From a virus: a stretch of 32,850 nt of DNA. The notes below the pieces were generated by a model. It did not search any database, was not told where the DNA came from, and saw only the letters and a program-made list of their open reading frames with translations. This document shows positions 192 through 31,627 of this stretch, in pieces (positions within the stretch are counted from its first letter, which is position 1; each line of letters begins with the position of its first letter). Both the position numbers and the translations under genes were made by a program. Location of the stretch: the IMG/VR virus record IMGVR_UViG_3300010163_000110, positions 1-32,850 of that record; one strand, 5' to 3'.

Positions 192-238
192 CTCGCACGT
201 TGGTTTGTTGAACATCTTCAACTCCGATTCCAAAGGTA

Positions 239-7626: not shown

Positions 7627-7638
7627 GCTTTTTTTCTT

Positions 7639-7646
7639 GATATATA
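7639..7646 (-). promoter_or_regulatory. Conserved TATATATC motif (copy 1), candidate phage late promoter element
   Basis: Minus strand reads aaCATATATATCaagaaaaaaagcATG. It follows terminator 7667-7697. Confidence 0.45.
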
Positions 7647-7666
7647 TGTTACCCGAAAATCGGACA

Positions 7667-7697
7667 CAAAAAAAGCGGGGCCCGATTTGGACCCCGC
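7667..7697 (-). terminator. Rho-independent terminator after the capsid/tube block
   Basis: Minus strand reads GCGGGGTCCAAATCGGGCCCCGC followed by T7-8. Confidence 0.8.
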
Positions 7698-7723
7698 CAC
7701 GAAACACACAACCACAAACCGCG

Positions 7724-8239
7724 TCAAGCGATCAGCGCATCGACGATCTTCGCGTCTACCTCGTAAGGGAAGTGCGAAGACACCTCGTTGAGCGTCAAGC
7801 CGTACTTGTTTGCGTCTCCGATCGCCGTGCCGGTCGTTCCGTCGCCTGCCGTCGCATTTACGGGCTCTTCGTCGCCGAGGAACCACCACCGCCCGTTTCG
7901 ATCGTGAACCAGCACGCGGGCATCGACGGCGGCAAGCGCCTCCATCTCGATGCGCTTCGCCGTGTTCATCCCGGCAAGCTGAATAGCGACGTCCGTCGAT
8001 ACGTAGTTCGATCCGCTGGTCGGCTCGATCGTCCGCGTCGAGGTCATCGACCCGGTATCTTTTCGAAAAGCATAACGGTGGAACTTCGCACTTGCCGCCA
8101 TTTCGATCGCCGTCACTTTCCCGTCCGTTACCGTGATGTTGGATACGTCAGAGTAGTTCGCTACAGCGATCTCGACGATTCCGCCGCGTGCGCTATCGCA
8201 ATCCCGGGGAATACCGCTTAAAGTTTGGTTACAAGCCAT
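7724..8239 (-). CDS. Putative major tail (tube) protein
   Basis: 171 aa, directly after the capsid gene and before a strong terminator. The pattern GGIVEIAVAN ... VLVHDRNGRWWFLG ... TTGTAIGDANKYGLTL resembles siphovirus tube proteins from memory. Confidence 0.45.
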   Translation of the reverse strand: MACNQTLSGIPRDCDSARGGIVEIAVANYSDVSNITVTDGKVTAIEMAASAKFHRYAFRKDTGSMTSTRTIEPTSGSNYVSTDVAIQLAGMNTAKRIEMEALAAVDARVLVHDRNGRWWFLGDEEPVNATAGDGTTGTAIGDANKYGLTLNEVSSHFPYEVDAKIVDALIA

Positions 8240-8293
8240 TTTTTCTCTTTTTTGTCCCGGAGCGGTTGCCCGCTCCGGGTCGGTCGATAAATA

Positions 8294-9283
8294 TTAAGCC
8301 TTTGCAGCTACCGTCTGGTCAGCGGCCTTTGCAGCTACCGTTCGGTCCGCGGCCTTTGCGGCTGCCGTTCGGGTCGCAGCGATCGTTCCCAGCACCACCT
8401 CGTCGGGGAATGCGAACTGTACGCCGGCATTCCACTCGATCTTGAGGCGGAACTTGTCCGCATCCTTCGAATACCAGGCGTCTACGACCTCGCGGGCATT
8501 CTCGAGGTCCACGCCGTAGAAGAGGTTCGATTCGGCGGCGGCCACGATGTTCTGCGTGCCCGAAAGGCCCATCGTGCTCACGACTGCCACGTTCGTGCCC
8601 GGGAAGATGAACTCCTTCGGCGCGGCATCCTGCGGACCCGAGTAGTGGTAGTAGTTCTTCGCCACGATCTCCTGGATGAACTGGCGATAGAGCGACGGCG
8701 ACACGAAGATACGCGCGTCTTCCTGAAGGAGCAACTCTTCAGGCATCGCCATGTAGACGGCCTGGATTGCATCCCAGGCCGACGTGCCGGCTGCGATCGG
8801 AACCTTCACGACGCCGGCCTCCGCGCCTGCCAGCTTCAAGAGGCCATCGTAGAACTTGAGGTTCGCGTCTTCGGACGCCGTGTCGCCCTGCCATACCTGG
8901 CGTTCGGAAGCGCGGGCCAGCTTGCCCAGAATGTCGTTGACGATCTCCTCTTCGAACGGCATCCGCTGTTCGCCTGCGGTGATCCGAACCTGGTACTGGG
9001 TCCAGGCGTCGAGCAGGTCGAACTTGCAGAACTCCATGTTCACCTTCATGATGGCCGTCTTGAGCTGCCGCTGGGTGAACTTGGCCGCGCCCTGAGGGGT
9101 GAACCCGCAAACGCCGCCTTCCTGAATCACGGGCGTCGTGTCCAGATAGTTCAAGGCCGCAACGGTCTTGATTCCGGTCTGCTTGCGCATCCGGCGGATC
9201 GTGTCGCCGTCAAAAACGGCCTTTCGCAGGATCAGGTCCCGCTTCTGCTCCACATAGGTGGGGAGCGTCGAAATGTCGTACAT
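8294..9283 (-). CDS. Major capsid protein (HK97-fold type) with C-terminal 9-aa tandem repeats
   Basis: 329 aa, directly downstream of the protease/scaffold gene. Sequence looks typical of a major capsid protein. The tail AAAKAADRTVAAKAADQTVAAKA is encoded by 27-bp repeats. Confidence 0.75.
   Translation of the reverse strand: MYDISTLPTYVEQKRDLILRKAVFDGDTIRRMRKQTGIKTVAALNYLDTTPVIQEGGVCGFTPQGAAKFTQRQLKTAIMKVNMEFCKFDLLDAWTQYQVRITAGEQRMPFEEEIVNDILGKLARASERQVWQGDTASEDANLKFYDGLLKLAGAEAGVVKVPIAAGTSAWDAIQAVYMAMPEELLLQEDARIFVSPSLYRQFIQEIVAKNYYHYSGPQDAAPKEFIFPGTNVAVVSTMGLSGTQNIVAAAESNLFYGVDLENAREVVDAWYSKDADKFRLKIEWNAGVQFAFPDEVVLGTIAATRTAAAKAADRTVAAKAADQTVAAKA
8298..8378. repeat. Three tandem 27-bp repeats at the 3' end of the capsid gene
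   Basis: GCCTTTGCAGCTACCGT.TGGTC.GCG occurs three times with a few substitutions. Confidence 0.85.
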
Positions 9284-9303
9284 ATTTTTGTTGTTTTTTG
9301 GTT

Positions 9304-10392
9304 CTACTTCGCCCCCACGATTCGAAGGGCGTTGTCCAGACCGCGGTCACCCGTCTTGCCGGCGCCCGCTGCCTCTTTGTACTCTTCGTGCGCCGGCTTC
9401 GCTGCCGGCGTCTTGCTCATCTTGTCGAGCTGCTCGGCCATCTCCGATTTGCTGGATTCCAACCCGTCGACCTTCCCCTCCAGCGCCTTGACGCGGTCGG
9501 CCAGCTTGTTGTACATCGCCCACAGCTCGTCTTCCTGTTCCTTGGCGTCGGAAGCCGGCTCTGCCTCCGCGGCTTTCGTCTGCTCTTTGGCCTCGACCTC
9601 GGCGCGAACGTCCACGATCTCGGAGACCTTGCCACCGGCGACCTTGATCGTCTTCCCGTCTTCCGTCTTGTAGTCGCCGTCCGCCGCGGGCTTTCGCTCG
9701 CCATCCTCTTCGAGGTAGACGCTGTAGCCCTCTTTGAGGTCTTCGTCGCCCTCCCAGATCAGAACGCCGTTATCGGTCGTAACGGCGCCGAACTGGACAA
9801 GCACCTTTTTTAAAATTGCTTTCAGTCCCATATTTTTTGCGTTTTGGTTTGTTGTTTCGCTGCGCATGATCGTGTGGTAGGCCTCGATCGAAAACCCGCG
9901 ATAGGTTCCGTCTTTGATCTTCGCCCAGACTTCGTCGTTCGTTACGTGGTACTCGCCGAAAAGGCTGCCTTCCTCGATCTCATCGAAACCGGCGGGAGCA
10001 ATTCCGGCCGCCTTGTCTTTGATGAAGAGCTGCAGCAGGTGAACGCCGGGGACCTCCGTGCCCGCTTCGTGCATCAGGTTGACGCGGTTCTGCCGGTTGT
10101 CGAAAAGGAACCTTTCGGCCATCTTCCGGATGTCTTCCGCGCGAAATACGAGGTAGTACTCCACATCGCCCTCCCGCCGGTAGATCGGGAAGTCGGCGCG
10201 CATCAGCACGCCGCGGACGATTCGCTTTTCTTCGTCTGCCACGGCGTACGTCTGTACCCGCTCTTGCTTTTCAAAGGCTTGGAACCGGCTCTCGACTGCA
10301 GGGGCATCCACGAGCGAAACGCGGACGATTCCGTCGTCTTCGCTCATCAGCTCCGCGCGGTAGACCGGTACCCCGTTTAACTTCGATTCCAT
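9304..10392 (-). CDS. Prohead protease (XkdF-like) fused to a scaffold-like acidic coiled-coil
   Basis: The N-terminal ~180 aa resemble the XkdF-type protease domain (VSLVDAPAVE ... NLMHE ... GFSIEAY). The C-terminal half is E/K/A-rich. Upstream of the capsid gene. Confidence 0.65.
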   Translation of the reverse strand: MESKLNGVPVYRAELMSEDDGIVRVSLVDAPAVESRFQAFEKQERVQTYAVADEEKRIVRGVLMRADFPIYRREGDVEYYLVFRAEDIRKMAERFLFDNRQNRVNLMHEAGTEVPGVHLLQLFIKDKAAGIAPAGFDEIEEGSLFGEYHVTNDEVWAKIKDGTYRGFSIEAYHTIMRSETTNQNAKNMGLKAILKKVLVQFGAVTTDNGVLIWEGDEDLKEGYSVYLEEDGERKPAADGDYKTEDGKTIKVAGGKVSEIVDVRAEVEAKEQTKAAEAEPASDAKEQEDELWAMYNKLADRVKALEGKVDGLESSKSEMAEQLDKMSKTPAAKPAHEEYKEAAGAGKTGDRGLDNALRIVGAK

Positions 10393-10405
10393 TCTTTTTT
10401 TTCTG

Positions 10406-10413
10406 GATATATA
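10406..10413 (-). promoter_or_regulatory. Conserved TATATATC motif (copy 2)
   Basis: Minus strand reads cgTATATATCCagaaaaaaaagaATG. It is preceded by a GAACAGC/GCTGTTC hairpin plus T6 just after the tape-measure stop. Confidence 0.45.
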
Positions 10414-10440
10414 CGTTTTTAAAAAAGCGGTCCGAACAGC

Positions 10441-12678
10441 TTAAAAGCTCGTTTCGCTGTTCTGAATCTCCACCGTGCGGGCGGCCTCTTCGACGTCTTG
10501 CCAAACAAGTACGACCCGCTGGTCTTGGGCCGCGCGGCCGGTGTTCGCTTCGATGTTGTTCAACCGTTCCTCCTCGCTGGCGGAAGTCAGCGTCCGGGTG
10601 ATCGGCACCTGTTGAATCACCGCCGGGGGCGACGTGATCGCAGCGGAAGCCGAGCCGCCGAGCCCCGACGAAGAACCTCCGCCGAGCGGGCTCTTCGGCA
10701 CCTGCACCGATAGGATGCTGCGGACGTTCGCCAGACCGGACGCAATGGCCGCGGCCGCGGCGATAGCACCACGGACGGGGCTGCTTGCCGTTTTCGGATT
10801 GAATTGTGATTGATACGCCTCTTGCGCCGTCTGCCACGTGCTTATCGTCGTCGATGCCACCGCCAGTGCCTTTCCGAAAGCGGTGTTTTCACCGGCCAAC
10901 TCGGCGCCGGACGCCATCAGGTCTCCGATCAACTTGTATTTGTCGCGCTCGGCTTTTTTCTCTTTTTCCTTGATTTTTTGCTCCGATTTGTATTGCTGTT
11001 CGCCCAACTTTAGCTCCTGGACGCCCGCTTTGTGTTGGGCGTCCATTTCGGCCTTCAGCTCCTTCTCGAACTCGGATAAGGCCTCTTCGTCGTAGCGCGC
11101 ATTGATCTCGGCCTGCTGCTGGCGGAAACGCTCCGTCATTTCGAGCCGGATCGCGTCCGCAGTCTCTTGGGCGATCCGCTCTTCTTCGACGCGGGTATTG
11201 AAGGCCTCCATCTCCTTCGCGTAATTTTCGCGCAATGTCTGGAGGTCGTTTTCGCGCGTTTCCGCCCGGTTTTCCTGCCGGAGCCGCAGCAGCTCGAGCT
11301 CGGCCTTGTAGTTGTTCTCGGCGATTTGCTGCTGCAGCTTCGCCGCGTCGGACGCCGACCTTGCGGCGTCGTTGTTCGCTTTGGCTTCGAGCTCGACGAT
11401 GCCGGCCGACTTGAGGGCAGCTTGTGCTGCGGTCTCCCTGGCTGCCTGCAGGTTGAAATAAGCCTCCGCCAACGCTTCGGCCGCCTTCTGGTCTTTTCGG
11501 ATCGCTTCTTCCTCTTCGTCGGTGTAGGCTCGTTGTTCTTTTTCATAACTATATACGCCTGTGAGTGGGTCAATTGATGTTATTTTAGCGACCGTTTTCC
11601 CCTTTGCTATTTTTTCGTCCGCCTTTTGCTGCTCTTGCAGCGCGACGCGATACTGCTCGATCGCCAGCTCTTGGGCGGCGGCGGCTTGGGCCCGCAGCTT
11701 CATCGATTCGATGAAGGATTCCGTATTTTGCACGAGCAGATTCTCGGCACCTTCGACGTCTTCGACCTTCACGCCCAATCGGGCGAATGCATCGGCATTC
11801 TCTTCGATGAAGCGCTGCTTGTCTTCGAGCGAATCGCCGAGCGCCTCCCACTGGCTTTGCAGGTCGCGCAAGGTGTACATCGATCCGGCCACATCGTCGT
11901 ACCCATCGCGCATGGATTCGTTCAACCCCTTTACAGCCTTTTCGGCCGCCGATGCGCGGTTGGCGCCGGTCAGCAGGTCCTTGCCCCACTTGATGATCTC
12001 ACTCCCGTACGAAGCCAGCAGCGTGATGCCGACAACCAGCAGCGTTTGCCACGAAAAGATCGACTTTATAACCTGCGAAAAGGCAGACGGGACCTTTTGC
12101 CCCTCCGCTCGCAGCCGCGCAACCTCCTCCGACGTCCGTTTGAACTCATCGGCCAACATCGGCAGGTTGTTCGAAATAGCCAGGAAGAACTGGTTGAAGC
12201 TCATCGTCAGCGATGGCAGCTCCCGGGCGACCTGCTGCACCTGGTATTGCAGCGGCGTGAACCCTTTCGCGGCGTTTTCGTATTGCCCAACGAAGCGGGT
12301 GAAGACGCCGCGCGTCGTGTCCATCTCCTTGAGTTGGGTGTTGACGTCTGCGATGCGCTCCGCCAGGTCAGCGCGTTCGGCCGTGTCACCGAGCGTCTTG
12401 TATCGGTAGGTCAGCTCCGAGAGCGTGGCCGAAAGGGAGTTGTACGATCCCTCCTCCTCGTTCACCGCTTCCGTTCCCAACTTCGTCGCCTGCGTTAGCG
12501 CGGTTCGGAGCCGCACGACCCGCTGGAGCGCCTCTTCATAATCTTCGGTTCCAGCCTCCGCAGCGATGAAATCCGCCCGCGCCGCCTTTACGGCTTCGCG
12601 CAGCTCTTTTAAATTGGTGATACTTTGCCCGGTATCGAGCTCGAGAATCACCTTTTTTTCGATTGTATTCTCTGCCAT
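10441..12678 (-). CDS. Tape measure protein
   Basis: 745 aa. Long coiled-coil regions, hydrophobic segments (SWQTLLVVGITLLASYG) and a Gly/Ser-rich C-terminus. Confidence 0.8.
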   Translation of the reverse strand: MAENTIEKKVILELDTGQSITNLKELREAVKAARADFIAAEAGTEDYEEALQRVVRLRTALTQATKLGTEAVNEEEGSYNSLSATLSELTYRYKTLGDTAERADLAERIADVNTQLKEMDTTRGVFTRFVGQYENAAKGFTPLQYQVQQVARELPSLTMSFNQFFLAISNNLPMLADEFKRTSEEVARLRAEGQKVPSAFSQVIKSIFSWQTLLVVGITLLASYGSEIIKWGKDLLTGANRASAAEKAVKGLNESMRDGYDDVAGSMYTLRDLQSQWEALGDSLEDKQRFIEENADAFARLGVKVEDVEGAENLLVQNTESFIESMKLRAQAAAAQELAIEQYRVALQEQQKADEKIAKGKTVAKITSIDPLTGVYSYEKEQRAYTDEEEEAIRKDQKAAEALAEAYFNLQAARETAAQAALKSAGIVELEAKANNDAARSASDAAKLQQQIAENNYKAELELLRLRQENRAETRENDLQTLRENYAKEMEAFNTRVEEERIAQETADAIRLEMTERFRQQQAEINARYDEEALSEFEKELKAEMDAQHKAGVQELKLGEQQYKSEQKIKEKEKKAERDKYKLIGDLMASGAELAGENTAFGKALAVASTTISTWQTAQEAYQSQFNPKTASSPVRGAIAAAAAIASGLANVRSILSVQVPKSPLGGGSSSGLGGSASAAITSPPAVIQQVPITRTLTSASEEERLNNIEANTGRAAQDQRVVLVWQDVEEAARTVEIQNSETSF

Positions 12679-12679
12679 A

Positions 12680-15631
12680 TTAATACGTTATAGTAGGTTC
12701 TTCGCGACCCGATTTGTGTATCACTTCAAGCTCGACCTCTTCGTCTCCGCTTTTAAAAATGAATGTATAACGCCTGTCGTAGAGTGTGGCGTATTCTGTC
12801 GAAATAACCACATCCGTCGTTCCGGCCGGTCCGTTCATCGGCGTAATTGTGAAGCTGTTGTCGTAGTAGAACACGCGCCAAGAACCGGCCGCCGTGATCC
12901 GGACCTTTTCCGATCCACTGTTTAAAATCTCGATCGAAGTAGGCTTAATCGAAAGGCCGTACCCGAATCCGTCTTGCCCATCGGTGTAGTTCGCTTTGTC
13001 CTTCACCTTCACGAACTCGCACTGCACCGTGGCCGAAGAGGTCAGATCGTAGTTCGATATTTTGTTGAGCGCCCAAATCGCGCCGTCGAAGTAGTAGAAC
13101 TTTCGGAGCAGACTTTCGCCGGGCTCCATGCCTTCGAGGTTCACGTAGCAGGTCACGGACTTCGTGTCGACGTCGTAACGGTCGGCCAGATAGCGCCGCC
13201 ACCATTGGGCGTACAAGTTCGAATCGGGGCGCACCTCGACGTCCGGGATGTCGATTTCTGCCGGGGTCCCGAAATCCCACGACTTCGAAATTACCCCGCC
13301 CGAATCGTACCGGCCGAACATCGGGAGCGGCGGCGCCGTCGTGCCTCCGTTTAAGAGCCAGCAGGGCTCGCCGTCGTTTAAGGTCGTCATCTCCGTGCGG
13401 TCGTCCGTCAGGATGAAATCTTTGTACGCGTCCCCCTTGTAGGTACCTCGGTAGAACAGCAGCACGTCGCGTGAATCGAGCGCCTCGTTTCCCTCTTCAT
13501 GGAATTGCGCCTTGCTGAAGGCGTCGTATGTGAGGTAGACGGGATTCATGTATTCGATCGTGTCGGACGGCGACGGTGTCGGCACGTTCAAGTCGATCGA
13601 ATCGGCGCCTCCATTCCGGTAGAGCCGGTAGGTGTGGCCGGAATCCACGAAAACGGAGGGGAAGTGGCTCTGCATTCGAGTGATGTTGATAAAGTATTTT
13701 TCCCGCTCGAGCACTTCGGCAGTTCCCTTGAACACGTTCCCGTTTAAAACGTCTTTGTGCTCGGAGTTGAAGTCGTAGCCGGTATTGACGCGCTGCACGC
13801 CGTATTCGCGGCCGTACACATCTTGGTAGTATTTCACGTATTCGCTTTCTTCCTGCTCGACGTTGAAATCGTACCACTTCTTGTCCGCCAGAACCGGATT
13901 GATCGTTATTTTCTTCGATCGGTCGATCCGCTTTTGCAAGTCGACCGTTTCACCGGTGTAGAGCGTATTTCGAGACACAATTCGGATGCGGCGTTCGGAT
14001 TTGTCGAAAAGGAATCCGAGCCCGAACAGCTTGCAGTACGATAGGAGGTAATCGGCGGGCGTCTTTTCCGTATCCAACAGCATCGCCTTCGTCACGAGCG
14101 TTCCGGAGCGTATATAGCCGGTCCCCTCGTATTCAGCCTTGCTCCCGAGGTTCTGGAATGCGAAACCGGCGATCGGCACCGGCTCGTAATTAGCCTCAAT
14201 GCTTTCGTCCGTCCCGTGCAAAATGTAAAGCGTTTGCGGTGTAGTCCCCCAGTTGTACTCGAATTGGAGATGAATCGATCCGACGCGCTGCGCGCCTTCT
14301 ACCGTGAATACCGCCGACGGCCCATTCCAGACCGGCACACCGTTTTCGTTCACGTCGAAGTCCCCGGTAAGGACTTCTGCACCCTCTTCGTTTGAGTAGG
14401 CGCCGCCGGAAAAAGAGACCTTTTTTGACCGGTGAAGGATTCCTCCGTCGAGCCCGTACACGATCAACTGACAAACAATTTCGGAGAACTCGTGCACGCG
14501 ATGAAGGCGCAGCCGTGTCCCCGGCTCGAGCGGCACTCCAGTACTCGTTTTCGGTTGAATCTCTACCTTTATATCGGCCGTTGTCTGGCTTATATCTTTG
14601 TTCGATGACACCGTTAAGGAAAAAGGGTCGTATTCTTCCTCATCGAAACTTAAAACCGCTTTCCCGCTGTCCGCCTCGAGCTCGTAGGTGTTCAACAGCG
14701 GCAGCGTGATCCACGCCTGTGCATAGTAAGGGTTCCCGCCGCTGAAAAAGTCGGAATCGAGCTCGACTTCATAACCTCCGTTGTTTTCAGGCTTGCAGCA
14801 TGCCTCGATGATTGCCCGCATCGAAACGACCGGGCGCTGCAAGTACGACCGGAGATCCTTCGTCTCCCACTCGGTGTACTCCTTTGAGAGCTCGACCAGG
14901 GACCAGCCGTCGACCGTTGTGTATTCCGCTCCGCTGCTGTCCGAAGCGGTGGAGGTTAGGCCGGCAATGAGCGGGCGGATCAGGGCTTTGTCGGCAGCGA
15001 AGTCGCCGCCCGAAGGTATCCCATTATAGGCCGGCGCGAAGTTGATAACGGTCCATTTACTCCGAACCGCATTCGCATCCGAAAGCGTTCGCCACGCTTC
15101 TCGAACGGCGTTTGCCGTGATATAGAAGTTGAGCTCGGCCGACGGGTCCACATTGCCCAAAAAGTCGAGCGACGACAACTTCTTCGCCTCTCCTTCTTCG
15201 TCGTAGGAGAGGGAGTAGAAAAACGAGCCGAGACCGCCGTAGAGTGAAACGTGATAAGTCACATCGTCGCCGTCGCGCTCTATTTTGTCCAGTTTTGCGT
15301 AACCTTGTTCGATGATCTTAGAACCTTCGTAAAGCACGAACGGTGCGCGCAGCAGGGGATTGAACGACGCGCCGGTCTCGATCGTCCGCACGCTGCTGCG
15401 GCGGGCCCGGCTGGTCGCCGCCGGCATCACCGTGCGGCGGTCGAGGCGATAGGCTGCTCCGAAGATCGCGTTGTTCGCGGCTGTCCCCGGTATTTTTATC
15501 GACTTGCTGAAGCTGTTCTTTACAATCGTCGGATTGCTCAAATCTTCAGCGGTGTATGTGAATTGGATCGCCGTTTTTCCGTCAAGATCGACGAGCTTTT
15601 CAGCAATGTACAGTGAAATATCCCGTTTCAT
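12680..15631 (-). CDS. Large tail-tip/baseplate protein with C-terminal BACON-like Ig domain
   Basis: Start at the internal ATG at 15631 (MKRDISLYI), which forms an ATGA overlap with the upstream stop. 983 aa. The C-terminus SWRVFYYDNSFTITPMNGPAGTTDVVIST is BACON-like. Adjacent to the tape-measure gene. Confidence 0.55.
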   Translation of the reverse strand: MKRDISLYIAEKLVDLDGKTAIQFTYTAEDLSNPTIVKNSFSKSIKIPGTAANNAIFGAAYRLDRRTVMPAATSRARRSSVRTIETGASFNPLLRAPFVLYEGSKIIEQGYAKLDKIERDGDDVTYHVSLYGGLGSFFYSLSYDEEGEAKKLSSLDFLGNVDPSAELNFYITANAVREAWRTLSDANAVRSKWTVINFAPAYNGIPSGGDFAADKALIRPLIAGLTSTASDSSGAEYTTVDGWSLVELSKEYTEWETKDLRSYLQRPVVSMRAIIEACCKPENNGGYEVELDSDFFSGGNPYYAQAWITLPLLNTYELEADSGKAVLSFDEEEYDPFSLTVSSNKDISQTTADIKVEIQPKTSTGVPLEPGTRLRLHRVHEFSEIVCQLIVYGLDGGILHRSKKVSFSGGAYSNEEGAEVLTGDFDVNENGVPVWNGPSAVFTVEGAQRVGSIHLQFEYNWGTTPQTLYILHGTDESIEANYEPVPIAGFAFQNLGSKAEYEGTGYIRSGTLVTKAMLLDTEKTPADYLLSYCKLFGLGFLFDKSERRIRIVSRNTLYTGETVDLQKRIDRSKKITINPVLADKKWYDFNVEQEESEYVKYYQDVYGREYGVQRVNTGYDFNSEHKDVLNGNVFKGTAEVLEREKYFINITRMQSHFPSVFVDSGHTYRLYRNGGADSIDLNVPTPSPSDTIEYMNPVYLTYDAFSKAQFHEEGNEALDSRDVLLFYRGTYKGDAYKDFILTDDRTEMTTLNDGEPCWLLNGGTTAPPLPMFGRYDSGGVISKSWDFGTPAEIDIPDVEVRPDSNLYAQWWRRYLADRYDVDTKSVTCYVNLEGMEPGESLLRKFYYFDGAIWALNKISNYDLTSSATVQCEFVKVKDKANYTDGQDGFGYGLSIKPTSIEILNSGSEKVRITAAGSWRVFYYDNSFTITPMNGPAGTTDVVISTEYATLYDRRYTFIFKSGDEEVELEVIHKSGREEPTITY

Positions 15632-16611: not shown

Positions 16612-16628
16612 TGCGTTGTTTTTTTACG

Positions 16629-16636
16629 GATATATA
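16629..16636 (-). promoter_or_regulatory. Conserved TATATATC motif (copy 3)
   Basis: Minus strand reads ttgTATATATCCgtaaaaaaacaacgcaATG, immediately after terminator 16637-16671. Confidence 0.45.
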
Positions 16637-16671
16637 CAAAAAGCCCGAAGCGGTCGGAATCGCCTCGGGCT
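16637..16671 (-). terminator. Rho-independent terminator after the terminase/chaperone block
   Basis: Minus strand reads AGCCCGAGGCGATTCCGACCGCTTCGGGCT followed by TTTTT. Confidence 0.8.
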
Positions 16672-16675
16672 CGTT

Positions 16676-17185: not shown

Positions 17186-17957
17186 TCTTCGATCCTCCGC
17201 TTATCTTCTTCTTGTTTGTCATTCGAATACGCCAGCCACGAAAGAAAGGCGTAAACCGGGAAGTCCAACGTTTCGTGCGCCGGCGTGTGGGTGACTTCGG
17301 AGACCCGGTCTATCGCAACGGTCCAGCCCCATTTTCGAGAAAACGCCGAAGCGCTGCTATCGTCTCCATCGCTTTCGCTTTCGCCTCCTTTTGTCTCTCC
17401 GTCTTTGCCCGAATCACTTTCGTTTGCATCTCCAAAAAGTACAGCGAACGACGTGCGGACCTTTGCGCACATTTCAAAAAAAAAGCGAGCAGCGCATTCG
17501 CGTCGGTGATCGGAAGGCGTTCGCGGATCAAGGCCTGCAACTCGTTAACATCGTACCCGTCGCCGTACCGGTGCCCTTCAGGCACCAGGAATACAGACAC
17601 GAGCTTTTCCATGTTCCCGTCCAAATCGGCCGCATAGCTTTGGAAGTCTATATACTGGCCGGCGGTGAACTTCTCGACACGTGTAGAGGGGCGCAGCCGG
17701 TATCCTCCAAGCTCGTAAACCTTCCGGACCGGCTTCTCTTTCGGCTTTTCAAGGAGGAACGATGCCCGATCCATAAGGAGCCGAAATTCGACGTACGGCA
17801 ATCCGAGCAGCTCGTCCACCGTGGAACCGGTCAAAAGGGCAAGAATTTCGAGATTTATATCGCTCTCTTCTCGCCCTTCCCTTTCCTTCTCTTCGCATAG
17901 AGAGGAGAACCTTTTGAAGACGCCGATCGGCATCTGGTCGTAACTTGTAATCATCAT
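17167..17957 (-). CDS. Predicted -1 frameshift extension product (GT-like, ~263 aa)
   Basis: ORF 17167-17472 is in the -1 frame relative to 17310-17957. It is open across the T9 run and has no independent translational signals. Confidence 0.4.
17310..17957 (-). CDS. Tail-assembly-chaperone-like protein (G-like, zero-frame product)
   Basis: 215 aa, with an ATGA overlap with the terL stop. Contains a T9 slippery run, and a -1 frame ORF overlaps its 3' end. Confidence 0.45.
   Translation of the reverse strand: MMITSYDQMPIGVFKRFSSLCEEKEREGREESDINLEILALLTGSTVDELLGLPYVEFRLLMDRASFLLEKPKEKPVRKVYELGGYRLRPSTRVEKFTAGQYIDFQSYAADLDGNMEKLVSVFLVPEGHRYGDGYDVNELQALIRERLPITDANALLAFFLKCAQRSARRSLYFLEMQTKVIRAKTERQKEAKAKAMETIAALRRFLENGAGPLR
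17476..17484 (-). other. Slippery T9 run (gcT TTT TTT TTG in the zero frame; T_TTT_TTT heptamer)
   Basis: A9 on the plus strand at 17476-17484. Frames were checked codon by codon against both track translations. Confidence 0.6.
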
Positions 17958-19417
17958 GTAAAGCTAATTCGAAGAATCCCCGACCGCTGTTGTATTTCAC
18001 GCTCGACGACGCCCGTCAGGGCATCGGCGCCATCGTCGTGTGCATTGGCTCGAAATATCCGTTTGAACCCCGAAAGGTGGGCGAAGAACGCCGGCCAACG
18101 AAGATCCCAACCTTTCGGGAACCGAACGGCCTGCATCACCGTAGCGGCATTCGAGAGGATGCGCGCCTCTTTGTTGCCGCCCTGGTGGAACCATTCGACC
18201 CGGACCGAAGGCGCCAGACGCTGCAGTGCCCGGGCGAACCCGCGGCCGCCGTTGTTGCTTTCAACGTATGCGATGCGGGTTCCGGTTCGTACCAGCAGCT
18301 CGGCCGCGCTGGCCTCGGTGACCTCCATCGGTTCCTGCGTGAAAAGCACATCGGAGACGTAGACTTTCAGGTCGCGGTCCACCACGTAGGAGATCGCGCA
18401 CAAAAAGTCCGTCCCGGTGTCGGCCGTGTCGATGTAGGCGCCGCGCTTTACGATCCGATCGGGTCCGGGTATTGCATCGTAGGTTTCGAATCGTCCGTAC
18501 AGCAACCCCTCCCGGCTGGCGGGGGCTCCCTGGTAGAGGCATTGGAAGGTGTGCGGGTCGAGCCTCCGCTTCACCTGCAGCGATTCGATGGAGTGGCGCG
18601 CAGGCCAAAGAGGCGCACCCGGTTCCCGGTCGTCGAGCTCTGTCGGCTCGCTCTCTTTGATCGCCTCGAAGTTCACGCGCGCCCAAACATCTTGCCCGGT
18701 TGGCAGTGCATCGAGCTGCTCGAACGTTTTGAGGTCGAAGACGCGCTCCCGGGTCGCGATCATCCCGACAAGGTCTTCTTCGTGCCAGCGCGTGAAGACG
18801 ATCAACTCCCGAGAATCGTTGTGCAGTCGCGTGCGGGCGACGGAGGTATACCAATCCCACGCAGCCTCTCGGATCGTTGGGGAGTTCGCCTCCATCGCAT
18901 CTTTGTAGAGGTCATCGAGGATCAGGACGTCGACCGTGTTTCCGGTCAGTCCACCGCCTCGTCCCACGGCTTTCAATCCGCCTCGGTGCCCGACGATCTC
19001 GAACTCCGACGAAGTCCGCATCGCGTTCGAAGCTTCGGCCGTCAGGTTCGACCGGTTCAGCTTGGGGCCCGGGAAGATCGCAGCGTAAGTCGGTGTGTCG
19101 ATCACCCGCTGCACGTCACGGTTGAACTTCTTCGCGAATGTGTCCGAGTAGGAAGCAATAGCGATCCGCAGGTCTGGATTAAGGCCGAGCAGATACGCAG
19201 GCAGAAGCCTGGTCGAGCCCTGGCTCTTTCCGTGTTGCGGCGGCATCGTTACGATCAATCTCCGCACCCGACCGTCTGCAAAGGCCTGCAGGATTCGATA
19301 GTAGGCCACATGAAACCGAGCGAACTCCAGATGCGGGAACACTGCCTTCGAAAAGAGCCCGAACGATTCCGCCGCCAGTTTCGCCGTAAGCCGGCTTCGA
19401 TCCGCCTCGCTACTCAT
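17954..19417 (-). CDS. terL: Terminase large subunit
   Basis: 487 aa. Walker A-like MPPQHGKS, Walker B-like VLILDDLY, and a C-terminal nuclease-like region. Preceded by a small-subunit-like gene. Confidence 0.85.
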   Translation of the reverse strand: MSSEADRSRLTAKLAAESFGLFSKAVFPHLEFARFHVAYYRILQAFADGRVRRLIVTMPPQHGKSQGSTRLLPAYLLGLNPDLRIAIASYSDTFAKKFNRDVQRVIDTPTYAAIFPGPKLNRSNLTAEASNAMRTSSEFEIVGHRGGLKAVGRGGGLTGNTVDVLILDDLYKDAMEANSPTIREAAWDWYTSVARTRLHNDSRELIVFTRWHEEDLVGMIATRERVFDLKTFEQLDALPTGQDVWARVNFEAIKESEPTELDDREPGAPLWPARHSIESLQVKRRLDPHTFQCLYQGAPASREGLLYGRFETYDAIPGPDRIVKRGAYIDTADTGTDFLCAISYVVDRDLKVYVSDVLFTQEPMEVTEASAAELLVRTGTRIAYVESNNGGRGFARALQRLAPSVRVEWFHQGGNKEARILSNAATVMQAVRFPKGWDLRWPAFFAHLSGFKRIFRANAHDDGADALTGVVEREIQQRSGILRISFT

Positions 19418-19787
19418 TCCGTTTCTTCACATCGGCCAGGAACGCGGCGACCGTATCGACGTCCATATCGCCCAAAGACACCTCGACGTCGTTGTGAGCT
19501 TTCACCTCGATCTGCATCGGTGACTTCTCGCCTATCGTCTCCGCGATCGCTTTGAATGCCTTCACGTCCCCGGCCTCGGCCTTTTTGATCAGCGCGACCG
19601 ATATGCGCGCCCGCCGGGTGGTTGGCTCCCCGTCCGGGCCCGTTACAACCTGGTCGAGGATCACCTGCAGCTCTTCGCGCAAAGCTCGGCGGGCCGCTTT
19701 TGACTTTCCAGCTGCAATTCCGCCCTTCCGCCCAATTTCTCGGGCTTCCGTCGGGGTAAAGGGGGGCCTTAATTTACCTCTTGCCAT
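19410..19787 (-). CDS. terS: Terminase small subunit (putative)
   Basis: 125 aa, with a basic N-terminus (TEAREIGRKGGIAAGKSKAARR). Overlaps the terL start by 8 nt. Confidence 0.55.
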   Translation of the reverse strand: MARGKLRPPFTPTEAREIGRKGGIAAGKSKAARRALREELQVILDQVVTGPDGEPTTRRARISVALIKKAEAGDVKAFKAIAETIGEKSPMQIEVKAHNDVEVSLGDMDVDTVAAFLADVKKRNE

Positions 19788-19818
19788 TTCTTTTTCTTTT
19801 GCCGTTTTTTTTAAGTTT

Positions 19819-20073
19819 CTACCTCTTCGCTGGTAACTTACCGTCCGACTGCTTGAAATCGAAATAAAGCCGCCCCAATCGCTTCAAAGTGGCAAAAACG
19901 CAATGCCCGCACGAACTGTCCGTCGCGATCTGCCGCTTTTCGGCCCGCGAAAGCACGGAATCCATCAGCGCCACGCCGGCGCGTCCCGGGTATCGCAAGA
20001 AGTCCGAAAACACGGCTTTGTGGAAGTGATCCTCGAAGGGCGCGAGCTGGTCGAACTCTTCCCGCGAAATCAT
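19819..20073 (-). CDS. Hypothetical protein (84 aa)
   Basis: Start at the internal ATG at 20073 (MISREEF), which forms an ATGA overlap with the upstream stop. Confidence 0.5.
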   Translation of the reverse strand: MISREEFDQLAPFEDHFHKAVFSDFLRYPGRAGVALMDSVLSRAEKRQIATDSSCGHCVFATLKRLGRLYFDFKQSDGKLPAKR

Positions 20074-20402
20074 AATCCGAATTTTTGGTTGCACAACTCG
20101 ATGACGCGGCCGAAGCCTTCCCGGAGCATCCCCAAAAGGTTGTGAATCTGCACCGAAAAATAGGAAAGCACGGCGATGTAGGCGACCAGATAGACCGAAA
20201 AACGATCGGCGAAGAGGGTCGCGTAAATCAGGCAGCACCACCACGTCATGCACTTCGAGCAGCTAACGAGCGGCAGCTTTACGGCCGCCTCCTTCACCCC
20301 GAACGCCGACGCGATGCCGCTCCGAAGGCTCGCAATAAAGCCCGAAAGGTCAACGACGTAAACGACGACGACCGCAAGGCAAAACAGTTCAAAGTAAATC
20401 AT
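20070..20402 (-). CDS. Small multi-pass membrane protein (110 aa)
   Basis: Start at the internal ATG at 20402 (MIYFELFCLAVVVVYVV), which forms an ATGA overlap with the upstream stop. Three hydrophobic segments and a CSKCMTWWC motif. Confidence 0.5.
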   Translation of the reverse strand: MIYFELFCLAVVVVYVVDLSGFIASLRSGIASAFGVKEAAVKLPLVSCSKCMTWWCCLIYATLFADRFSVYLVAYIAVLSYFSVQIHNLLGMLREGFGRVIELCNQKFGL

Positions 20403-20668
20403 CTTTTCAGTTGTTTTTTTAGTTTTTCCTGAATCCTCAAAACGATAAGACGCATCGAAGTTTTTGAAGACTGAAACGCGGCCGCCAGCTTCCGCAGCGA
20501 TCCCAAATGCGCGTACAAAACGAGCACAACACGTTCGGATGGAGTTAACCCATAGCGGATCGCCAGCTTCATCCGAAGCGCCCTGTCGTCGTCTTTCGTG
20601 CATCGGTCCGTGTCCGGCTCGTAGATCGGAGCCAGTTCGCGAAAGGTCTCAATCGCTTTCTCCGTCAT
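20399..20668 (-). CDS. Sigma-70 region-4-like HTH protein (89 aa)
   Basis: LTPSERVVLVLYAHLGSLRKLAAAFQSSKTSMRLIVLRIQEKL fits the region-4 pattern L.p.er.v..L....s..eiA.....s...v......kL. Confidence 0.5.
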   Translation of the reverse strand: MTEKAIETFRELAPIYEPDTDRCTKDDDRALRMKLAIRYGLTPSERVVLVLYAHLGSLRKLAAAFQSSKTSMRLIVLRIQEKLKKQLKR

Positions 20669-20966
20669 GGCTCCAAAAATTTAAACCCGCAAAGTCATTC
20701 GTCCGCATTCGAAATCGTCTCACTTGGATGTGATACGGCGAAGTTGTTGAGTAAAACTGGTTTTCGATGATTCGAACGAGAAAATAATTAATTTGCTCGT
20801 TTTCGTACAGCGAAACCAACGCCTCCTCATCGTATCGGAGCAGGGCTTCGTAGATGATTTGCGCAAGGTCGTCGAGCCCTTTTGCTGGACCTCGGCAAAC
20901 GTTCGCGATCAATCGCTCCACTCGCCGCTCGGTCGCCAAAAGCTCGACTACCTCGCGTCTCGTCAT
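20649..20966 (-). CDS. Sigma-70 region-2-like protein (105 aa)
   Basis: DDLAQIIYEALLRYDEEALVSLYENEQINYFLVRIIENQFYS fits the ECF region-2 pattern eDl.Qe....l............yL..i..N. Confidence 0.5.
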   Translation of the reverse strand: MTRREVVELLATERRVERLIANVCRGPAKGLDDLAQIIYEALLRYDEEALVSLYENEQINYFLVRIIENQFYSTTSPYHIQVRRFRMRTNDFAGLNFWSHDGESD

Positions 20967-21484
20967 AGGCGATCGGGTATTTTGAAGAGCTGTTTATCGG
21001 CTTTTCGAATCCACGCCGGTTTTTCCATGCCGCCCAGCCGCAGCGGGGCAAAATCGTCCATCCGGGAGCCCGTACGCGCCATTTCGTTCAACATCTCGCC
21101 GTAGCTGTAGACCTTGCACCGTAAGTCGCACGACAACACATCCGCCATCGTGAAGGTACGGTATCGGCAATTCGCAAGTACCTGACCGATAGCGAAGTCC
21201 AACCGTTCGGCGCTCATCTCTGTTTTTGCGATCCGCTCGGCCAGCAGGATGAAGAACCCCCGGAAGTCGTCCCCGGCCATTGCCGGGAATGCCGCCCGGA
21301 GCTTCGCCAGGGAGGCGTGAATCTGCGCCGGCGGCGCCGGAGCGCCCCGGAACGCGGAAACTTCACAACTCCCACTCTTGCGGAGTGTTAGCGAGAGCAA
21401 TGCCTTCGGCGACGGCTTTTGCAAAGTCGAGATCGCTTGTTCGCGGAGCCTTTCCAGTGCCGCGCCCACATTGTGTTCGTTCAT
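20963..21484 (-). CDS. Hypothetical protein (173 aa), start uncertain
   Basis: The track ORF start at 21484 overlaps the upstream gene by 122 nt. The next in-frame ATG is at 21280. Confidence 0.4.
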   Translation of the reverse strand: MNEHNVGAALERLREQAISTLQKPSPKALLSLTLRKSGSCEVSAFRGAPAPPAQIHASLAKLRAAFPAMAGDDFRGFFILLAERIAKTEMSAERLDFAIGQVLANCRYRTFTMADVLSCDLRCKVYSYGEMLNEMARTGSRMDDFAPLRLGGMEKPAWIRKADKQLFKIPDRL

Positions 21485-22319
21485 CGCGTTTTTCGTTGTT
21501 CATTCGTTCTTCAGCTTTCCGCAAGTAGTTGCGAAAGTGTCGTTTAGCATCCGACAACGGCTTCACCGTCGCCCCGTTGAGTTTCTGCTCGGTGCAAAAT
21601 TCGTGGATCATTCCATCGATCCAATCCCGCGACTTGTGCAGGTTCATGCACAAAGCCTCGATCCACACCGTCTCCGCCTGCATCGCCGCCTCGAGCTGCT
21701 CGATCGGAATCGTTACGTCAGCCGCCGCGGCCGTCTCCGTACCTTTTTTCGCGCAACTTTTTTGGCTTTTCGGCGATTTTGGCGTAGAGTTAGGCGCACT
21801 TCCCCCGAAAATCGAAAGCTCTTCGCCCGCGATAGTGGAGGTAGAAGAAGATAATTCTCGACCGTTAGGGAGAGAATTATATATACTCTTCTCTTCTTGT
21901 ATTACATTTGTATTACATTTGTATTCGTCGGCCGATACATTTGTATTACATTTGTATCCTTCCGCTTCCTTTGCCCATCGCTTATTGATTGCAGCTCTAC
22001 GTTTTACGCTAATCTCGTCCTTCGATTTCATTCGCTTCAGGAAGCCGCCGGAGTAGAAGTACTTACCGTCATCGGTAAAGACAAATAACCCGTATCCCTC
22101 GACTACCGCCTTTATTTTGGCGGCGTCTACACGAAGGTCAAAGGCTAACATGTTGTAATCTTTGACACTCATGTAAGTAGGCTCCTCGCGCAGTCGCTCG
22201 AGAATCATAAAGTAGATGCCGTAACCCTCCGCACCCATTTTAGCACGAAGCGGAATCAGCTTGTCAGAGTTTCTCGCATTTGAATCGTGCGGAAACCAGT
22301 TGCGCTTGCTGTCCCCCAT
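21363..22319 (-). CDS. Replication initiation protein (DUF4373 / Lin1244-like N-terminal domain)
   Basis: WFPHDSNARNSDKLIPLRAKMGAEGYGIYFMILERL matches the DUF4373 opening from memory. The central linker is encoded by iterons. Confidence 0.7.
   Translation of the reverse strand: MGDSKRNWFPHDSNARNSDKLIPLRAKMGAEGYGIYFMILERLREEPTYMSVKDYNMLAFDLRVDAAKIKAVVEGYGLFVFTDDGKYFYSGGFLKRMKSKDEISVKRRAAINKRWAKEAEGYKCNTNVSADEYKCNTNVIQEEKSIYNSLPNGRELSSSTSTIAGEELSIFGGSAPNSTPKSPKSQKSCAKKGTETAAAADVTIPIEQLEAAMQAETVWIEALCMNLHKSRDWIDGMIHEFCTEQKLNGATVKPLSDAKRHFRNYLRKAEERMNNEKRDERTQCGRGTGKAPRTSDLDFAKAVAEGIALANTPQEWEL
21900..21957. repeat. Four 11-bp iterons TATTACATTTG (two pairs split by CGTCGGCCGA), candidate origin
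   Basis: Copies at 21900, 21911, 21933 (interrupted) and 21944. Flanked by an AT-rich stretch at 21868-21899. Confidence 0.6.
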
Positions 22320-22321
22320 AG

Positions 22322-22588
22322 TCAGGCTTTTTTGTTGTGAACCCTTTTATGGCAGTCTGCGCATAGCGTCACCAGGCAGTCCAAATGCTGCCTCTCATTA
22401 CCTACGATCGAATGCCCGTCGACGTAGTACGTCTTATGGTGCACTTCGAGCGTGTAGTCTTTCCCGCACCGCTGGCAGCGGTGGCCGTCGCGCAAACGCA
22501 CGATCCGGCACACCTCTTGCCAGTAGGGCGTCTGGAGTTGGCGGACGTAGTTACTCTTCCGCCCCCTCTTGTGCTGCAGCCTCGACAT
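22322..22588 (-). CDS. HNH endonuclease
   Basis: CQRCG ... LEVHH ... CADCHKRVH: a zinc-finger plus H-N-H arrangement in 88 aa. Confidence 0.8.
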   Translation of the reverse strand: MSRLQHKRGRKSNYVRQLQTPYWQEVCRIVRLRDGHRCQRCGKDYTLEVHHKTYYVDGHSIVGNERQHLDCLVTLCADCHKRVHNKKA

Positions 22589-23153
22589 GATCGGTTTCGA
22601 TCGTTATGCCGAGCACCTCCTCGAACGCCTTGCGATTGGTCTCCTGGTTCGCGAACAAGGTTTGTTCGTCCCACTTCGGAAGCCGATCGACACGGCAAAG
22701 GCGGAATTGTCCGGCGATCCACGCATAGTACAGGTAATGCCCGTTGATCGGGATGCGGACCGTCGAATCGGTCGGCAGCTCCATCTCCTTTTGCCCGCGC
22801 TTCACCTGGTAGACCAGATCGCGGATCTGCGTGTTCACCGCTTGATACTTGTCCTCGGCCTCCTTCACCATCGTTTTCGCCAGCTTCTTGGCCTCTTCGA
22901 GCTGCTCTTCCAACTTCGGCTGCTCATCCTCGAGCAGTTCGCCGTAGTTGGATCGGATCGACGCCCGCTCGTAGTCGTTCAACATCCGAACGGCCGTCGT
23001 TCGGGGCATGCTTTCGGCGATGAAGGCGCCGGACAAGTGTTTGCGGATGGCGTCCATGCTCTCCGCCCCCTCGAAGATCACCGGAGGGAAGTTTACCTCC
23101 TTCGGCAGCACGAACTCCGGCTCCTCGGGTGTGTAGTTCTTAAGATCAATCAT
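22551..23153 (-). CDS. Hypothetical coiled-coil protein (200 aa)
   Basis: Start at the internal ATG at 23153 (MIDLKNY), 19 nt downstream of TATATATC copy 4. The longer track ORF has an Arg-rich implausible N-terminus overlapping the exonuclease gene. Confidence 0.5.
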   Translation of the reverse strand: MIDLKNYTPEEPEFVLPKEVNFPPVIFEGAESMDAIRKHLSGAFIAESMPRTTAVRMLNDYERASIRSNYGELLEDEQPKLEEQLEEAKKLAKTMVKEAEDKYQAVNTQIRDLVYQVKRGQKEMELPTDSTVRIPINGHYLYYAWIAGQFRLCRVDRLPKWDEQTLFANQETNRKAFEEVLGITIETDHVEAAAQEGAEE

Positions 23154-23172
23154 TGCGTTGTGTGTTTTGTGT

Positions 23173-23180
23173 GATATATA
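23173..23180 (-). promoter_or_regulatory. Conserved TATATATC motif (copy 4)
   Basis: Minus strand reads aaccTATATATCAcacaaaacacacaacgcaATG. It shares ACAACGCAATG with copy 3. Confidence 0.4.
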
Positions 23181-23197
23181 GGTTTTATAAAAATCGG

Positions 23198-25665: not shown

Positions 25666-25809
25666 AGGTCTGAAAGTTTAAAAATGTACAAAAAGAAAGG
25701 ACGGGCCTTTCGTGAATCTGCTACAATCCCATCGCCTTACGGTGATGCCTGAAAGGTCCGCCCTTATAGGGCTAATATGGAACCGTAAGAAGGTGGAATT
25801 GTAGCACTG

Positions 25810-25840
25810 CAAATATAGCTCTTTATTTTCATTTTGCAAA
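25810..25840 (-). promoter_or_regulatory. Bacteroidota sigma-A type promoter (-33 TTTG, 19-nt spacer, -7 TATATTTG)
   Basis: Minus strand reads TTTGcaaaatgaaaataaagagcTATATTTG, which matches the TAnnTTTG consensus with typical spacing. Located just after the methyltransferase stop. Confidence 0.55.
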
Positions 25841-31617: not shown

Positions 31618-31627
31618 TTTTATAAAT

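Follow-up and report, generated by a model that had tools for sequence, protein, structure and literature searches.

A two-part promoter-like signal and a putative split sigma factor in a phage of Alistipes-type Bacteroidota

Introduction

Almost nothing is known about gene timing in temperate phages of gut Bacteroidota. Which signal opens the gene blocks of such a phage, and which protein would read it, is the question raised by a stretch of viral DNA of 32,850 nucleotides (nt), positions 1 to 32,850 of the IMG/VR record IMGVR_UViG_3300010163_000110 (hereafter the window). The window, with a G+C content of ~55% and nearly all of its genes on the minus strand, is a prophage or phage of an Alistipes-type host (Rikenellaceae, Bacteroidota). 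An initial annotation, made from the letters alone, had pointed to an octamer, TATATATC, in four intergenic gaps and had taken it for a phage-specific class of late promoter, possibly read by two sigma-like proteins encoded at 20399-20966. What had been missed is an upstream half, CCG[A/C]TT: the signal is bipartite, and the spacing of its parts is fixed. On the evidence set out below, the four sites are probably phage-specific promoters read by host RNA polymerase with a two-piece phage sigma factor resembling those of the extracytoplasmic function (ECF) group; we put the probability of this reading at roughly 0.6.

The bipartite signal in the window

Exact matches to TATATATC lie on the minus strand at 7639-7646, 10406-10413, 16629-16636 and 23173-23180, just where they had been reported, and on the plus strand at 27035-27042. 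The five matches in the whole window compare with 0.24 expected, and five or more were reached in 0 of 100 shuffles. The intergenic DNA, which comprises 2190 nt under our gene model, holds four copies against 0.12-0.14 expected at its own base composition, and at least four occurred in 0 of 5000 shuffles. All four minus-strand copies stand in gaps that open multi-gene blocks, as had been claimed, and the octamer is absent from the two remaining apparent gaps of the 7-24 kb region, 8240-8293 and 19788-20398. The latter is in fact no gap, being occupied by two ATGA-coupled genes. The sites and the leaders that follow them are:

7639..7665, minus strand: promoter-like site 1; GTCCGATT (7665-7658), N11, TATATATC (7646-7639); heads block 1
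10406..10432, minus strand: promoter-like site 2; GACCGCTT, N11, TATATATC; heads block 2
16629..16655, minus strand: promoter-like site 3; GACCGCTT, N11, TATATATC; upstream half within a terminator stem; heads block 3
23173..23199, minus strand: promoter-like site 4; GACCGATT, N11, TATATATC; heads block 4
7627-7638, minus strand: A-rich leader of site 1; 12 nt, 75% A
10393-10405, 16612-16628 and 23154-23172, minus strand: A-rich leaders of sites 2, 3 and 4
27035..27042, plus strand: fifth copy of TATATATC; inside the YopX gene, on the opposite strand, without an upstream half

Aligned on the octamer, all four sites share an upstream half G(A/T)CCG(A/C)TT, in which CCG[A/C]TT lies precisely 11 nt upstream of the octamer, and the combination CCGMTT-N11-TATATATC is confined in the whole window to these four sites. 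Six of eight consecutive upstream columns are identical across the four; more than four identical columns were obtained in 0 of 200,000 shuffles. Conserved -35/-10-like elements at fixed spacing, as in ECF-type promoters, are present at every site, and a single extended -10 box of the T4 type, TATAAATA without a -35, does not describe them, the upstream half being conserved both in the window and in its relatives. A scan for sigma-70-type promoters gave no match at the four sites. At site 4 the upstream half overlaps the stop codon of the preceding nuclease gene. The copy in the YopX gene, which had been named as a possible refutation, is real; it has no upstream half and probably arose by chance.

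The last base of the octamer is followed by 12, 13, 17 and 19 nt (sites 1 to 4, heading blocks 1 to 4) before the ATG, and these leaders are 58-77% A, in agreement with the distance and composition first given. Of the leader sequences described as common to pairs of sites, ACAACGCAATG is indeed present in copies 3 and 4; AGAAAAAAAG holds only approximately for copies 1 and 2, which have 7 and 8 A's, respectively.

Hairpins and terminators at the block boundaries

A terminator hairpin had been noted directly before three of the sites. Folding gives a graded picture of this boundary module, a hairpin with a T-run upstream of the signal, which is strong at sites 1 and 3, moderate at site 4 and weak at site 2:

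7674..7698, minus strand: intrinsic terminator closing the capsid block; -20.9 kcal/mol, z -4.4; followed by T7 and then site 1
10421..10463, minus strand: weak hairpin with T6 before site 2; -11.7 kcal/mol, z -1.2, not significant
16641..16672, minus strand: intrinsic terminator closing block 4; -22.8 kcal/mol, z -5.7; its T-run abuts TATATATC
23194..23234, minus strand: moderate hairpin with T5 at the 3' end of the nuclease gene, before site 4; -17.5 kcal/mol, z -2.7; probably a leaky terminator

The upstream half takes a different place relative to the hairpin from site to site: it lies past the terminator at site 1, in mid-stem at site 3, where the -35-like half sits in the 3' arm of the terminator, and at the end of the stem at sites 2 and 4. 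Since it keeps its register with the octamer and not with the hairpins, it forms a two-part DNA signal together with the octamer, and its conservation is no side effect of the terminators. This fixed register points to recognition on DNA, as by a sigma factor. At site 3 only 25 nt separate the T-run from the ATG, so that any promoter of block 3 must overlap this element.

One more hairpin of the region has neither a T-run nor a promoter box. It lies at 8240-8293 on the minus strand, between the capsid-like gene and the next, is strong (-23.9 kcal/mol, z -4.9), and may stabilise or attenuate the mRNA and so set the level of capsid protein.

Conservation of the signal in relatives

Syntenic relatives were obtained through the 993-amino-acid (aa) virion protein of the window (locus L081), a scan of viral contigs with an alignment of the 105-aa protein (43 loci) and a metagenome scan (5 loci). 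They are distant, with 30-68% protein identity, and the metagenome scan, made with the 327-aa virion protein, yielded no close relative (best identity <=35%). Conservation of the exact octamer does not hold among them: it is absent or randomly placed, and never at the homologous site. A degenerate form of the motif is nevertheless found at the homologous position in ~20 distinct phages. Upstream of their homologues of the 327-aa gene, which corresponds to site 3 of the window, these phages carry CATTTACGG-N13/14-(G/T)ATATTTCC, then an A-rich leader of 12-20 nt and the ATG; the upstream element varies as CAATTACGG, CAAATACGG or GCGGACGGA, and 13-14 nt separate the two 9-mers. In the window GACCGM ... 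TATATATC(C/A) occupies the same positions with a few base changes in each half, and the bases that are private to the window are common to all four of its sites. On this alignment the octamer reads as a window-local variant of a family-wide signal.

In five loci (L115, L116, L120, L127 and L128) the loop of the terminator hairpin just before contains the upstream half, with the T-run as spacer. These compact terminator-promoter modules stand at 15970 in L115, 17060 in L116 and 16390 in L120, and also occur in L127 and L128. The signal is not restricted to the equivalent of site 3: the gap of L081 homologous to site 2 contains TTTACAGATTCCCGGC..TATATCTA, and L082 and L084 have TATCTTTCC before the homologue of the 200-aa gene that opens block 4. 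A similar arrangement, AAACGC-N13-GATATTGCC, precedes the protease gene in L132-L134, three of the relatives returned by a protease-based viral scan, all of which were distant and of lower G+C content.

A weight matrix built on the family signal gave, at >=20 bits, 15 matches in the sigma-bearing loci (0.63 Mb), without exception on the coding strand, and one match in 1.32 Mb of Alistipes control loci without the sigma genes, an enrichment that is partly circular, as training sites are among the 15 matches. At >=18 bits, 21 matches fell on the plus (coding) strand and one on the minus strand. Matches outside the training set recur immediately upstream of the 105-aa gene, shortly downstream of the 89-aa gene and before the capsid gene of L081. 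The control consists of 80 loci (L001-L080) fetched through the large terminase (17954-19417, minus strand), whose counterparts in 80 Alistipes genomes have 56-69% identity to it. These loci share only the terminase with the window, except for two genes in L001, and were for this reason unusable as a test of motif conservation and retained as a negative control. Between them and the window there is strong mosaicism at the level of modules.

The box also accompanies the genes for the sigma-like proteins. The aligned start of the 105-aa gene has a box (GATATTTAT, GATATTTCC and similar) no more than ~20 nt away in ~17 of 40 distinct loci, and in at least 12 of these the sigma-2-like gene starts with a GTG exactly 4 nt past a GATATTT box; examples are L102 (9988), L120 (9982), L093 (7268), L081 (~680), L099 and L108. 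With the promoter geometry of Flavobacterium johnsoniae (see below), the sigma mRNA of these relatives would be leaderless and GUG-initiated, and the position of the GTG fits both the expected placement of the transcription start and autoregulation. The upstream half of this class is GGTAACA or GTTGACA, ~14 nt away, and not TTTACGG. A third subclass of upstream half is found after the sigma-4-like gene, for instance in CAAATCCAA-N13-GATATTTAT.

The two sigma-like proteins

The proteins proposed to read the signal are encoded by a pair of overlapping genes within block 4:

20649..20966, minus strand: sigma-region-2-like protein; 105 aa; first piece of the split sigma-like factor
20399..20668, minus strand: sigma-region-4-like helix-turn-helix (HTH) protein; 89 aa; second piece; 20-nt overlap with the first, in another frame

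The proposal gains from the conservation of the pair, the solid similarity of the second protein to region 4 and the existence of fused homologues, which together favour a sigma-like role; the likeness of the first protein to region 2 is weak. A second open reading frame (ORF) of 82-113 aa, beginning between -44 and +4 nt of the first stop codon, was found in 44 of 46 loci, and the junction differs among them: in L081 the two genes share an ATGA, in the window 20 nt. Given this variation and the two intact ORFs in 44 of the 46, a frameshift or sequencing error was rejected as the origin of the split. The family of the 105-aa protein comprises 748 representative clusters at 50% identity, a lower bound; most members have ~100 aa, and a few are long (166-226 aa). 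The C-terminal halves of the long members match Pfam Sigma70_r4_2 weakly and are homologous to the 89-aa protein of the window (E 2e-13 and 2e-7).

Among 30 members of the second-protein family, 25 match Sigma70_r4_2 (best 5.2e-7) and 15 match Sigma70_r4. In the PDB a profile of this family matches SigW in its sigma-4 domain (2.1e-4) and, more weakly, other sigma factors; it also finds LuxR-type regulators, which belong to the same fold class. To judge from these profiles, the second protein is clearly sigma-region-4-like. The first protein is sigma-region-2-like only remotely. Sigma70_r2 is the most frequent Pfam match of its family (18 of 90 sequences), with all matches sub-threshold (best E 6.9e-5). 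A model built from the 90 sequences reached a mean predicted local distance difference test (pLDDT) score of 89, against 52 for an earlier, poor model from two sequences, and in BFVD it retrieved phage proteins of 160-232 aa at probabilities of 0.92-1.0, one of them named 'RNA polymerase sigma-70 region 2'. We read the two polypeptides as a divergent sigma of ECF-like type, divided between regions 2 and 4, a reading that is probable and not established.

Two further features bear on the pairing of protein and signal. The sigma genes of the window lie in a gap-free operon headed by site 4, that is, behind a putative promoter of their own type, and this position inside block 4 suggests autoregulation. 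In addition, T(T/A)ACG stands in the upstream half of every one of the 15 loci in which this half is clear and the recognition helix reads SH.T, while the window (SSKTS), L085 (SKST) and L096 (SYGS) have other helices and other upstream halves; the apparent co-variation of helix and upstream half is suggestive and is confounded by phylogeny.

Host-type promoters at the early units

The -7 element of Bacteroidota, TAnnTTTG, has nearly invariant T-12, A-11, T-8, T-7, T-6 and G-5; in F. johnsoniae it occupies -12 to -5, with the transcription start 4-5 nt farther downstream (PMC6847099). Translation in Bacteroidota does without Shine-Dalgarno sequences and relies on Kozak-like leader positions instead (PMC6847099). 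Boxes of this kind had been listed for four early units of the window, and all four exist, at 25810-25817 and 30745-30752 on the minus strand and at 30842-30849 and 32528-32535 on the plus strand, the last one base away from the position originally given. Those at 25810 and 30745 are each preceded, at 19-20 nt, by a TTTG partner, and the pattern TTTG-N17-21-TANNTTTG occurs in the window only there and at 231-262 (minus strand), where a third promoter-like match reads TTTG-N20-TACCTTTG.

25810..25840, minus strand: host-type consensus promoter of an early unit; TTTG, N19, TATATTTG
30745..30776, minus strand: host-type promoter of the leftward early operon; TTTG-N20-TACATTTG
30842-30849, plus strand: TAATTTTG box, divergent from 30745..30776; precedes the Cro/CI-type HTH gene

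The ATG of the HTH gene follows 5 nt past the TAATTTTG box, and its mRNA would therefore be near-leaderless. The promoter at 25810-25840 stands before a strongly structured 119-nt RNA (25688-25806, minus strand; -45 kcal/mol, z -5.4) with a terminator at 25695-25711 (minus strand) that falls just before the gene at 25402-25665. Rfam gave no match for this RNA, which is a candidate phage small RNA or regulatory leader.

The octamer had been judged not to fit the host box. This is right for A-7 and C-5, which replace T-7 and G-5 in all four sites; the fit nonetheless extends to 4/6 specified positions, and to 5/6 for the family consensus TATATTTC, which fails only at G-5. The phage signal and the sigma-ABfr promoter (-33 TTTG / -7 TAnnTTTG), of which the early units of the window use canonical copies, have an AT-rich box of the same length in common, with T-12, A-11, T-8 and T-6 in both, and both would lie close to the transcription start. 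They differ further upstream, where the window has GACCGM 13-14 nt from the box in place of TTTG at ~19-21 nt. A TTTG ~17-21 nt upstream is no general feature of the sites, as it occurs 20 nt before the variant box at site 1 and 18 nt before it at site 4 and is missing at sites 2 and 3. The signal was also essentially absent from the host DNA sampled.

Gene layout of the window

Genes were assigned from PHROG and Pfam scans and fall into the following units:

6-90, plus strand: tRNA-Leu(CAG) at the very left edge of the window; probably the attachment site or host boundary of a prophage
7626 to ~293, minus strand: block 1; portal-like region (ORFs of 109 aa and 374 aa), tail and lysis genes
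10392 to 7724, minus strand: block 2; protease/scaffold-like protein of 362 aa, capsid-like protein of 329 aa, 171-aa protein
16611 to 10441, minus strand: block 3; virion proteins of 327, 993 and 745 aa
23153 to 16676, minus strand: block 4 (6.5 kb); 200-aa protein, HNH, replication-initiator-like gene, 173-aa protein, the two sigma-like genes, two small ATGA-coupled genes, small terminase, large terminase
20070-20402 and 19819-20073, minus strand: the small genes after the sigma-4-like gene; 110-aa hydrophobic protein and 84-aa protein
25665 to 23198, minus strand: second early unit; its last gene encodes a PD-(D/E)XK nuclease
30669 to 25844, minus strand: leftward early operon
30855-31199, plus strand: Cro/CI-type HTH gene, divergent from the leftward early operon

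All four blocks had been called late. The term does not suit block 4, which with its replication-like, HNH, sigma-like and terminase genes is not purely late and is a middle or regulatory block. The computational tests otherwise all favour the initial reading as a phage-specific class of promoter. The genes for the 110-aa and 84-aa proteins were previously unannotated and fill the apparent gap of 611 nt at 19788-20398; their ATGA overlaps with neighbouring genes make block 4 one gap-free operon.

Several observations concern the layout itself. One tail-region protein has a BACON domain. The portal-like gene consists of two ORFs on the minus strand, 7297-7626 (109 aa) and 6219-7343 (374 aa), which overlap by 47 nt in different frames; portal families are matched only by the second, and the arrangement may reflect a frameshift or a split gene, or the smaller ORF may be a gene of its own. 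A megablast search of window positions 7000-24000 against GenBank phages gave a single match, a 179-nt stretch within the 993-aa virion gene (15050-15228) with 81% identity to DNA of two Lactobacillus brevis phages annotated there as 'replication initiation protein'. Within the replication-initiator-like gene (21363-22319), four copies of TACATTTG at 21903-21954 (plus strand), arranged as two pairs with offsets of 11, 22 and 11 nt, look like origin iterons. Finally, the plus-strand cassette at 30855-32797 contains the Cro/CI-type HTH gene, then two genes without assigned function in DNA of 33% G+C and, farther along, a DUF4160 gene behind its own TATCTTTG box at 32528-32535; it may be a lysogeny module or foreign cargo.

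A proposed course of transcription

Direct observation covers the motif with its spacing, the conservation in relatives and the architecture of the gene pair. From these we infer promoter activity, the pairing of sigma and promoter, the start sites and the timing as follows. Early units would fire from host sigma-A promoters (TTTG / TAnnTTTG), and read-through past the hairpin before site 4 would lead to transcription of block 4 and supply the first sigma pieces. A phage sigma factor consisting of two polypeptides would then redirect host core RNA polymerase: the 105-aa region-2-like piece would contact the core enzyme and recognise the TATATATC box, and the 89-aa region-4-like HTH piece would recognise the upstream half. 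The factor may amplify its own operon through site 4, along with the replication-like and terminase genes, and fire sites 3, 2 and 1, where transcription would restart just past the terminators and yield insulated virion operons. If mRNAs start 4-5 nt past the box, as the geometry of Bacteroidota promoters predicts, the leaders of sites 1 to 4 would be A-rich and measure 7-8, 8-9, 12-13 and 14-15 nt. These lengths, together with the near-leaderless sigma mRNAs predicted for relatives, are in keeping with the very short or leaderless mRNAs that had been anticipated, and short A-rich leaders would suit translation in Bacteroidota because these bacteria lack Shine-Dalgarno sequences.

A wider reading is more tentative and may well prove wrong. 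A large family of Bacteroidota phages could possess a naturally split sigma whose region-2 piece reads the GATATTT box, combined with exchangeable upstream half-sites, so that changes of partner would produce a timed cascade. One small sigma core might then serve the classes of upstream half found before the sigma gene, after the sigma gene and before the virion genes, with near-leaderless, GUG-initiated sigma mRNAs and with terminator loops doubling as -35 elements.

Alternative explanations

Several results weigh against a two-piece phage sigma, in addition to the circularity of the weight-matrix enrichment and the phylogenetic confounding mentioned above. Neither sequence nor profile searches with the 105-aa protein and its family brought up a sigma factor in the PDB, and a Foldseek search of the first-protein model against the PDB returned no match. 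With hhalign, RpoE (alone or as a narrow alignment) aligns in region 4 only; the search for RpoE homologues had yielded only near-identical RpoE sequences. The window's own two proteins match no sigma model in Pfam or PHROG. Upstream halves vary by promoter class in the relatives while one box is common to all, and it is not obvious how one sigma-4 piece could recognise all three kinds. The family box TATATTTC differs from the sigma-A -7 element at just one specified position. No public RNA or DNA run contained the window. Three bovine metatranscriptomes cover the relative L116 with short, low-depth, fragmentary contigs, whose depth is 0.4-2.1 before the predicted promoter and 5.3-8.3 past it; one of these contigs begins 12 nt upstream of the box, a misfit with a start downstream of it. 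The main rival draws on several of these points. Host sigma-A, or another host sigma, would act at a deliberately poor -7 box, and the phage pair would be an activator bound at the upstream half. The partial match of TATATATC to TAnnTTTG, the TTTG before sites 1 and 4, the want of a solid region 2 match in the first protein and the generic LuxR/sigma-4-type HTH of the second, which also matches response-regulator DNA-binding domains, would all agree with such a mechanism. We consider it unlikely, since the nearly invariant G-5 is replaced by C in all four sites and in almost all relatives, sites 2 and 3 lack a TTTG at the right distance, the upstream half of all four sites is not that of the host promoter, and 1.3 Mb of Alistipes DNA is nearly free of the signal. 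Moreover, the fused homologues share size and domain order with ECF sigmas, and Sigma70_r2 is the Pfam family most often matched by relatives of the first protein.

That the sites control elongation, as loading sites of a Q-like antiterminator or as 'stoperator'-type repressor sites at block boundaries, is improbable. A hairpin with a T-run adjoins every site, the copies lie in one orientation in short intergenic gaps, the window has a Cro/CI-type HTH gene, and 11 of the 30 sigma-4-like proteins show faint matches to Phage_antitermQ. The best of these has an E-value of 0.046, however, far below threshold, and the sites are downstream of the terminators and not before them; the arrangement known from lambda Q, a Q-family protein with its site in a promoter upstream of the terminators to be overridden, is not what is seen. 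Asymmetric halves at fixed spacing are typical of sigma recognition, and in relatives the box is fixed 4 nt before the start codon of the sigma gene. Very improbable is an element acting on RNA, with box and A-rich leader forming a translation enhancer or a processing site on a long polycistronic late mRNA. The box always lies 4-35 nt from a start codon, an A-rich leader follows, and the absence of Shine-Dalgarno sequences would leave room for such a device, but it is the distance from box to start codon that varies and the distance from box to upstream half that is fixed. The upstream half, furthermore, is often inside the preceding terminator, and an mRNA ending there would miss the downstream gene. 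Chance recurrence of AT-rich words in AT-rich intergenic DNA (the gaps have 32-48% G+C, and one copy does lie in coding DNA, on the other strand) is refuted by the shuffle tests for both the octamer and the shared upstream half and by the positionally homologous motif in relatives.

Relation to known systems

The phage-sigma reading has precedents. Phage sigma factors with late promoters of their own include T4 gp55/gp33, SPO1 gp33/gp34 and PBSX Xpf. T4 late transcription uses gp55 and gp33 at a promoter, TATAAATA, that lacks a -35; gp33 is not known to bind DNA, and the sliding clamp is required. The window resembles T4 in that two small phage proteins would share the sigma function and in its AT-rich late box resembling the host -10, and differs in its conserved upstream half and in the HTH piece. 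SPO1 late promoters, read by gp33 and gp34, have a -35 of CGTTAGA and a -10 of GATATT. Here, too, two phage polypeptides replace the host sigma at a bipartite promoter, and GATATT is identical to positions 1-6 of the family box GATATTTCC, which may be coincidence; the host belongs to a different phylum. In both cases the comparison is one of description. In the cellular pair SigO-RsoA, RsoA supplies, as far as is known, only a region-2.3-like part, whereas the pair in the window would be split cleanly between region 2 and region 4. SigO-RsoA of Bacillus subtilis is described as a two-subunit sigma factor (PMC7826278, PMC8103513) and is comparable in that sigma function is divided over two co-transcribed polypeptides, although these are not phage-encoded.

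In its proposed domain content the factor resembles the ECF (group 4) sigmas, which combine region 2 with region 4 and whose size agrees with the fused homologues of 166-226 aa. ECF promoters similarly have a strict bipartite signal at fixed spacing, with the sigma genes behind a copy of the promoter. In the present family, by contrast, the factor consists of two polypeptides in 44/46 loci, its sequences are sub-threshold in Pfam, it is phage-encoded, and the box is AT-rich (ATATTTCC) and not of the CGTC type. No anti-sigma gene is evident. No late promoter or phage sigma of Bacteroidota phages, and neither this protein family nor this consensus, turned up in a literature search. Phage-encoded sigmas and two-subunit sigmas are themselves known kinds.

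Significance

If the two-piece phage sigma is confirmed, it would explain how the virion blocks are expressed behind strong terminators, and the phage would offer a natural sigma factor split between its two DNA-reading domains, which is relevant to the mechanism of sigma factors in general. It would also be of interest for the construction of orthogonal expression parts for Bacteroides and Alistipes. For the phages themselves, it would provide a testable promoter consensus and a two-gene switch by which late operons could be annotated in hundreds of uncultured rumen and gut phages.

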